DNA of 64,000 nt, taken from Escherichia coli (GTDB taxonomy: Bacteria > Pseudomonadota > Gammaproteobacteria > Enterobacterales > Enterobacteriaceae). Below the pieces are notes generated by a model. That model was not told the DNA's origin, searched no databases, and saw nothing but the letters and a program-made list of their open reading frames with translations. The translations under genes were made by a program, and so were the position numbers. Shown in pieces: positions 36,524 through 37,584 of this stretch (positions are counted from its first letter, which is position 1; every line of letters begins with the position of its first letter). The DNA is taken from NCBI RefSeq assembly GCF_044324875.1, contig NZ_CP172185.1; one strand, 5' to 3'.

Positions 36524-36871
36524 TTATATGCGGATTCCAGCGCGTTCCGTTCGTTTCGGGTGCTTCCAGTTGATACCTTCAAGAAGCATGGATAACTGAG
36601 CCGGAGTAAGGTGCACCTTGCCGTCACGGGTGACTGGCCAGACGAAGCGGCCCCGCTCCAGGCGTTTGGTGAAGAGGCACAGTCCGTCACTGTCAGCCCA
36701 CAACACTTTTATCTGGTCACCCCGGCGTCCGCGGAAGATGAACAGGTGTCCGGAGAACGGGTCATCCTTCAGGACGTTCTGAACTTTTGATGCCAGGCCG
36801 TTAAAGCCATTTCGCATATCGGTGATACCTGCAACCAGCCAGATACGCGAACCTGCAGGGAGAGATATCAT
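36524..36871 (-). CDS. tnpB: IS66-family TnpB (copy 2)
   Basis: 115 aa, [26 protein letters not shown]…. Confidence 0.8.
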   Translation of the reverse strand: MISLPAGSRIWLVAGITDMRNGFNGLASKVQNVLKDDPFSGHLFIFRGRRGDQIKVLWADSDGLCLFTKRLERGRFVWPVTRDGKVHLTPAQLSMLLEGINWKHPKRTERAGIRI

Positions 36872-37548
36872 CAGTGGCTGCTCCCTTTTATTTCGCGGAT
36901 AAGTGTCTGTAATAACGCCGGCGTCAGTTTACCTTTAAGCCTGAGAGTTCCGGCCGGCAGAACCAGCTCACAACACAGACTGTCGGACGGTGTATTTATC
37001 TGCTCTGGTTCCTGTGCGGGGGCCGGGATTTTATTATCCGGCTCCGGCGTTAACGTCACGGGAAGCAGTGCCGGCATATTTTTTCCGGAAGGCAGCAGGC
37101 CACCTTTCCGGTATTGATGGCGCCAGTTGAAGAGCAGGTTATCGTTGATTCCGTTTTCCCGGGCGATCTGCGCCACACAGGCTCCGGGCTGCAGTGACTG
37201 CTCCACTAAGGCGATTTTAAACTCATAAGGGAAGTTGGGCCGCCGGGGACGTTTTTTTACCACGGGGGCTTCGGATATAACGGTGCTTTCAGGACGTACG
37301 ACTGGTACCGTGGAAAATTGTCCGTAAAGGCAGGCATCAAGTTCCTGCTCCGACATGCCTGCGGGCAAAGGCCACGAAAGGCCAGCTCTCCGAAAGCGCA
37401 CGAACATACTACAAACTGTTGATTTTGGTACACCCAGGCGACGCCCGGCCACAACCCGGGGTAAATGTTCTTCAAAGTGAAGACGTAAAGCTTCAGTGAT
37501 CCAGGTCCGGTGTTTCATACGATAGTGTCCATTAAAAATGATGGACAT
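36871..37548 (-). CDS. IS66 TnpA-like ORF with a foreign N-terminal extension (IstA-like HTH segment); likely a fusion/pseudogene
   Basis: C-terminal 130 aa align with copy-1 TnpA but lack their own Met. N-terminal about 95 aa (…GVPKSTVCSMFVRFRRAGLSWPLPAGMSEQEL…) resemble the N-terminus of IS21-family IstA. Confidence 0.5.
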   Translation of the reverse strand: MSIIFNGHYRMKHRTWITEALRLHFEEHLPRVVAGRRLGVPKSTVCSMFVRFRRAGLSWPLPAGMSEQELDACLYGQFSTVPVVRPESTVISEAPVVKKRPRRPNFPYEFKIALVEQSLQPGACVAQIARENGINDNLLFNWRHQYRKGGLLPSGKNMPALLPVTLTPEPDNKIPAPAQEPEQINTPSDSLCCELVLPAGTLRLKGKLTPALLQTLIREIKGSSH

Positions 37549-37584
37549 TATTTTTGTAGAGCCGGAGGAAACAGACCAGACGGT

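Follow-up and report, generated by a model that had tools for sequence, protein, structure and literature searches.

The minus strand of the DNA analysed here, a stretch of 64,000 nucleotides from Escherichia coli (hereafter the window), carries an open reading frame (ORF) whose two halves resemble proteins from different families of insertion sequences. The question raised by this locus is whether the frame was assembled on the spot or belongs to the element that carries it. An earlier note described the ORF as a homologue of the IS66 TnpA protein that lacks a start of its own and is preceded in frame by about 95 amino acids resembling the N-terminus of IstA, the transposase of the IS21 family. 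Two readings were proposed: an older IS21-type element had been entered by an IS66 member or had recombined with one, or the ORF belonged to an uncatalogued IS66 variant with an extended TnpA. Our comparisons bear out the composite character of the ORF. Residues 99–221 are 43% identical (E 7e-30) to the 133-aa TnpA of an ISEc8-type IS66 element in the same window, and residues 21–75 are 36% identical over 55 aa (BLASTP, E 4e-9) to the N-terminus of IstA from a neighbouring copy of ISSso4.

The host of this "fused" ORF is, almost certainly, ISCro1, a 2699-bp insertion sequence of the IS66 family, and the ORF is its unmodified, full-length tnpA. The name is used here as given by RefSeq/PGAP to copies showing 100% identity to the window copy; it was first applied in Citrobacter rodentium ICC168, where the element is present in 24 copies (PMC3072379). 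On the side where the earlier note had seen no IS66 terminal repeat, we found the 22-bp left inverted repeat (IRL) GTAACCGGCTCATTTAAACCGT at 37580..37601 on the minus strand, a canonical IS66 repeat beginning GTAACCGGCTC; the interval discussed in that note ends at the inner edge of the repeat. IRL occurs once in the window as an exact match (0 expected by chance) and is the same as the end of an intact ISCro1 copy in E. coli CUVET16-465. The right inverted repeat (IRR, ...ACGGTTCTGACGAGTCGCTTAC; 32258..32279, minus strand) likewise had a single exact match in the window, where chance predicts 0, and agrees in every base with the CUVET16-465 copy at its right end. By our count, IRL and IRR agree at 16 of 22 positions. 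Both ends have the form known from the family, that of imperfect repeats of about 20–30 bp starting with GTAA. The octamer GATTATCG was read directly outside IRL (37602..37609, minus strand) and again beyond IRR (32250..32257, minus strand), where it is followed by the remainder of an IS3-family orfB; the window ISCro1 is hence bordered by the 8-bp target duplication that is characteristic of IS66 elements.

Between the repeats lie three genes in the order tnpA-tnpB-tnpC, all on the minus strand. The first, tnpA (36871..37548; 678 bp, 225 aa), is one unbroken ORF that opens with ATG at 37548, matches the model NF038385 and corresponds to RefSeq WP_001339397.1. The second, tnpB (36524..36871; 115 aa), matches PF05717 TnpB_IS66 (E 4.7e-40) and NF033819. 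The 5' part of tnpC, the gene for the DDE transposase, occupies 35245..36504 and matches LZ_Tnp_IS66, zf-IS66 and DDE_Tnp_IS66 (PF13007, PF13005 and PF03050) as well as NF033517; the gene is interrupted, so that it is read as a 436-aa ORF (36504..35194), and its 3' part including the stop codon was placed at 32288..32605 by BLAST to the intact element and by reading the sequence. An operon of this order encoding TnpB_IS66 and DDE_Tnp_IS66 domains is the gene arrangement of the IS66 family, and as far as sequence can tell, all testable features that define the family are present in the window element. The genes tnpA and tnpB share base 36871 in the string TGATG, a stop-start overlap of 1 nt that is consistent with translational coupling. 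IS679, in which three genes are reportedly all needed for transposition, is said to have the same three-gene organisation and an 8-bp duplication.

Comparison with the intact 2699-bp ISCro1 of E. coli CUVET16-465, which lies within tssF with GATTAAAG on both sides, explained the interruption of tnpC. In a BLAST alignment, positions 1–2357 of the intact element correspond to 37601..35245 of the window at 100% identity, and positions 2352–2699 correspond to 32605..32258 at 99.7% identity. The 6-bp overlap of the two blocks marks the target duplication of ISSso4, an IS21-family element of 2639 bp (istA, istB; 32606..35244, minus strand; NF033546 transpos_IS21, name from RefSeq), which lies inside tnpC, begins TGCAAAATGG and ends GGAATACGCA. 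The duplicated hexamer, GCAAAA, flanks it at 35250–35245 and 32605–32600. This ISSso4 arrived later and independently, and the architecture of tnpA owes nothing to it. A second copy of ISSso4 is present at 61134–63772 (minus strand), is 100% identical over 2639 bp and has AGACAA as its duplication; two identical copies suggest recent activity in this genome, and as direct repeats about 26 kb apart the pair could mediate a deletion.

The sequence surrounding ISCro1 was found to be that of an IS3-family element. Its 5' portion, a fragment of orfA together with the N-terminal stretch of orfB, occupies 37610..38760 on the minus strand (HTH_21 and rve in the ORF 37585..38118; RefSeq "IS3 family transposase"), and the remainder of orfB lies on the right side of ISCro1. 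E. coli F1022 provides the empty site, in which the IS3 element runs uninterrupted through a single GATTATCG, and this site occupies the corresponding chromosomal position, with a PhoX-family gene on one side and an S6 peptidase gene on the other. The flanks, the duplications and the empty site together give the order of events: the IS3 element came first, ISCro1 entered its orfB, and ISSso4 entered tnpC. ISCro1 reached the IS3-family orfB by ordinary transposition, with duplication of GATTATCG, and tnpC was broken later by insertion of ISSso4, with duplication of GCAAAA. The window ISCro1 would then have no TnpC supply of its own and would be expected to move only if complemented in trans. 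No record among complete E. coli genomes covered at least 80% of the whole IS3::ISCro1::ISSso4 nest, and the exact nesting is therefore specific to this strain.

Several further features of the locus were recorded. The neighbours of the nest in the window are a gene for a 1274-aa S6-family peptidase (27908–31732, plus strand) and a gene for a 659-aa PhoX-family protein (39458–41437, plus strand); the former is a SPATE-type autotransporter by its RefSeq label at the F1022 locus (L007), and the context is one of a chromosomal island in E. coli. In F1022 (2734–5080 of L007) the IS3 element of the same locus carries an ISEc8 about 35 bp downstream of the target site of the window ISCro1, and that ISEc8 itself contains an ISCro1. 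In different strains, then, IS66-family elements have struck this one IS3 copy in separate events, suggestive of a local insertion hot spot. The targets GATTATCG and GATTAAAG have GATTA in common (37613–37602 of the window and 1501–1512 of the CUVET16-465 locus, L002), and there may be a weak target preference. In megablast, the alignments of many ISCro1 copies continue beyond IRL for a few bases of flanking sequence (query start 75–88).

With the boundaries established, the first of the two proposed readings loses practically all its probability. It holds that an IS66 element entered an IS21-type remnant at this place and that the 5' end of an istA was thereby fused in frame to a tnpA without a start. 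The N-terminal segment is truly IstA-like, and an IS21-family element, ISSso4 (35244..32606), is physically near. However, the IstA of ISSso4 shares only 36% identity with the segment and is found at the other end of ISCro1, inside tnpC, and the sequence upstream of IRL belongs to the IS3 family and not to IS21. The IstA-like codons themselves are internal to IRL and are enclosed by the target duplication. The identical tnpA of 678 bp recurs in intact copies that occupy unrelated sites and have duplications of their own, as evidenced by the copy in tssF of CUVET16-465 and by a second ISCro1 elsewhere in F1022 with the duplication CATTTTTC. The region from IRL to the break in tnpC is widespread: of 5426 complete E. 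coli genomes, 1333 cover 80% or more of it. Together, the empty site in F1022 and the intact copies elsewhere refute a fusion at this locus, whether by insertion into an older IS21-type element or by recombination with one.

The second reading held in part. The TnpA is extended as proposed; it is not uncatalogued, since RefSeq lists the element as "IS66-like element ISCro1 family" and the protein falls under NF038385. The RefSeq element has the same tnpA (678 bp), tnpB, tnpC, inverted repeats and 8-bp duplication, and in RefSeq the identical CDS adjoins tnpB and a gene labelled "IS66-like element ISCro1 family transposase". Relative to other ISCro1 copies, that of the window differs in having ISSso4 in tnpC and in sitting within an IS3-family element, and its tnpA is no different. 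What the locus contains is, in short, a described IS66 member of the architecture in question with a terminal repeat that had been overlooked, the very finding that the earlier note had named as decisive against its proposal. The long TnpA is a native and already catalogued feature of the ISCro1 subgroup, not a local chimera.

Membership in the family extends over the whole protein. NF038385, an NCBIfam equivalog model named "IS66-like element accessory protein TnpA", aligned to residues 13–206 over profile positions 1–189 of 190, with a score of 295.8 bits against a cut-off of 150. Nor does the gene want for a start codon, as had been supposed: ATG 37548, the RefSeq start, is followed by a second ATG at 37518 (M11), which is the position at which all diverged homologues start. 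The latter is likely the biological start, judging from this conservation, and no obvious Shine-Dalgarno sequence was seen ahead of either ATG. The diverged long TnpAs are 207–224 aa in length and 40–45% identical in both halves, and in other assemblies tnpB and tnpC follow directly downstream; their position upstream of tnpB/tnpC indicates that the architecture is old and conserved. TnpA of the ISCro1 subgroup is natively about 215–225 aa long on account of two DNA-binding modules in tandem.

A different explanation of the long frame is that its N-terminal part is simply not translated, TnpA starting at an internal GTG near residue 95 and the frame upstream being open by chance. A GTG codon is present at about residue 95–96 of the ORF, homology to short TnpAs starts at residue ~99, and the tnpA ORF of the ISEc8-type element in the window has a GTG start. 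Against this, the roughly 90 codons upstream are stop-free and 40–45% identical as protein in diverged elements, the segment matches a curated profile over its full length, its predicted HTH fold is confident (pLDDT >90), and it is homologous to a known DNA-binding domain. We therefore consider it very improbable that the segment is untranslated and retain the long protein as the product of the gene; the same GTG could in principle also yield a short TnpA isoform.

The ISEc8-type element served as the short-form comparator; its label is taken from RefSeq entries at related loci, where it is called ISEc8-like. It lies at 427..2868 on the plus strand, is 2442 bp long, has inverted repeats that begin GTAAGCGTACAGC and is flanked by the duplication AGATATTG. 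It encodes a 133-aa TnpA (498–899, GTG start), TnpB and an intact 512-aa TnpC. Like ISCro1, it has the order tnpA-tnpB-tnpC, inverted repeats of the GTAAGCG type with the core AACCGTCTGGTC and an 8-bp duplication; unlike ISCro1, its TnpA does not have the N-terminal IstA-like HTH. ISCro1, at 2699 bp, is longer than this copy by 257 bp, a difference that is approximately explained by 82–92 extra codons in tnpA.

The domain layout of the long TnpA was examined with profile searches and an AF2 model (mean pLDDT 75), which displayed two confident three-helix HTHs at residues 16–54 and 108–147. The N-terminal IstA-like module spans residues 16–75 (37324..37503, minus strand) and comprises an HTH of three helices, then the GLSWPLP linker and a fourth helix; in the model the GLSWPLP segment and helix 67–75 follow the first HTH, and the helices 16–26, 31–38, 42–54 and 67–75 all have pLDDT >90. 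The second HTH, at residues 102–159 (37072..37245, minus strand), matches Pfam HTH_Tnp_1 (PF01527, E 8.6e-15) and is common to short IS66 TnpAs and IS3 OrfA, and the model NF047595 covers residues 102–219. The linkers between the HTH units are predicted to be disordered, residues 76–100 forming one of low confidence, and a beta-hairpin and helix were predicted at the C-terminus (residues 192–221). No meaningful match to the 225-aa TnpA was found among PDB sequences (best E 0.59), and when the AF2 model was compared with PDB structures by Foldseek nothing reached E<=0.001, the top entry being IstA 8b4h_A (E 0.23, probability 0.21).

The IstA-like part is accordingly shorter than first described: the resemblance stands, and its length is about 55–65 aa instead of 95, residues 76–100 being linker. 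The alignment to IstA of ISSso4 takes in the motif (A/S)(G/S)LSWPLPA and corresponds to IstA residues ~8–62, counted from the annotated IstA start, that is, to HTH-1 and the linker. In the opposite direction, IstA of ISSso4 matches positions 7–71 of NF038385 (E 6.9e-15). An exhaustive HMMER search with the N-terminal 88 aa against 1.84 billion cluster representatives returned 515 proteins at E<=1e-3. We inspected 41 sequences, namely the window TnpA and 40 longer matches; the long-TnpA model was found in 40 of them, 21 were IS21 transposases, and the short-TnpA domain was also present in 10. The GLSWPLP-type motif is nearly invariant across long TnpAs and IS21 transposases. When the N-terminal 98 aa were the query of a word-indexed search, nearly all proteins retrieved were fragments of the same E. 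coli/Shigella protein, and IstA was not among them. The BLASTP result, the profile cross-match and the share of IS21 transposases among the HMMER matches lead us to read the resemblance, on these comparisons, as true homology over about 55–65 aa and not as chance. A few matches of the HTH query also match ECF sigma-70, DeoR or other HTH families, and two long multi-repeat proteins were among them (P0134, with 6 stretches, and P0211, 781 aa, with 5 stretches).

In IstA of IS21, HTH-1 (aa 1–39) and HTH-2 (aa 55–104) are joined by a linker that binds the minor groove, and both HTHs contact the terminal repeats (PMC10122671; cryo-EM structure 8B4H). The long TnpA is like IstA in that residues ~16–75 are homologous to HTH-1 and the linker and a second HTH comes after; this second HTH, however, is of the IS3-OrfA/HTH_Tnp_1 type and not an IstA HTH-2. 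Unlike IstA, TnpA is without a DDE/rve core, a Mu-transposase C-terminal barrel and an IstB partner. No match to rve or Mu-transpos_C_2 was found in the 225-aa ORF, both of which are present in the neighbouring IstA, and the IS21 transposase model NF033546 did not match TnpA at E<=0.1. The ends of ISCro1 and ISSso4, compared by eye for IS21-like terminal repeats to which the IstA-like HTH might bind, showed no resemblance to each other. The kinship is hence one of a domain, with the HTH-1/linker signature in the GLSWPLP region present in TnpA, and TnpA is not an IstA.

How the two families came to share the module is a matter of old history, and an account of it complements the identification of the ORF as the native tnpA of ISCro1. 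The shared module would go back to an old domain exchange between the IS21 and IS66 lineages or to their common ancestry, rather than to anything that happened at this locus. We consider it rather probable that an ancestor of the ISCro1 subgroup gained HTH-1 and the linker from an IS21-type istA, or the reverse, and that the module has since been kept by selection. IS21 transposases, as 21 of the 41 sequences inspected, are the closest relatives of the module outside TnpA, and the two groups share the nearly invariant motif; short IS66 TnpAs, such as that of the ISEc8-type element, are without the module, and diverged long TnpAs have kept it at 40–45% identity. The competing account is shared descent from a generic transposase HTH, and some matches of the N-terminal query also fit sigma-70 and other HTH families, which detracts from a capture. 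Our literature search on the domains of IS66 TnpA found no description of the long form or of its kinship with IstA. More tentatively, and with doubt prevailing, the long TnpA may record a transfer between families in which the HTH-1 and minor-groove linker of an IS21 IstA type were placed onto an IS66 accessory protein, giving a tandem-HTH factor for end recognition that is separate from the DDE transposase, a kinship undescribed in the literature searched.

The arrangement of modules suggests how the protein might work. The first module is the N-terminal three-helix HTH with its GLSWPLP segment, whose homologues in IstA are HTH-1 and the minor-groove linker, and the second is HTH_Tnp_1 with the C-terminal beta-hairpin and helix, as in the ordinary short IS66 TnpAs of about 115–135 aa. 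Tandem HTHs are used for bipartite DNA binding by IstA, MuA and Tc3. By analogy, the long TnpA may bind DNA in a bipartite manner, with the tandem HTHs predicted to form a surface for the ends of ISCro1 or for subterminal DNA. TnpA would be made together with TnpB by way of the 1-nt stop/start overlap, and it may assist or regulate the DDE transposase TnpC.

As a locus, the region is a textbook nest of insertion sequences, and what looked like a fusion is a gene native to a named and abundant element; the value of the locus as a discovery is small. For the family, it means that IS66 tnpA exists in a short and a long form, and that the long tnpA should not be taken for a pseudogene fusion. The presence in the long form of an extra domain homologous to the first DNA-binding domain of the IS21 transposase provides a hypothesis for the poorly understood role of IS66 TnpA, namely that it may act in bipartite recognition of the ends of the element.
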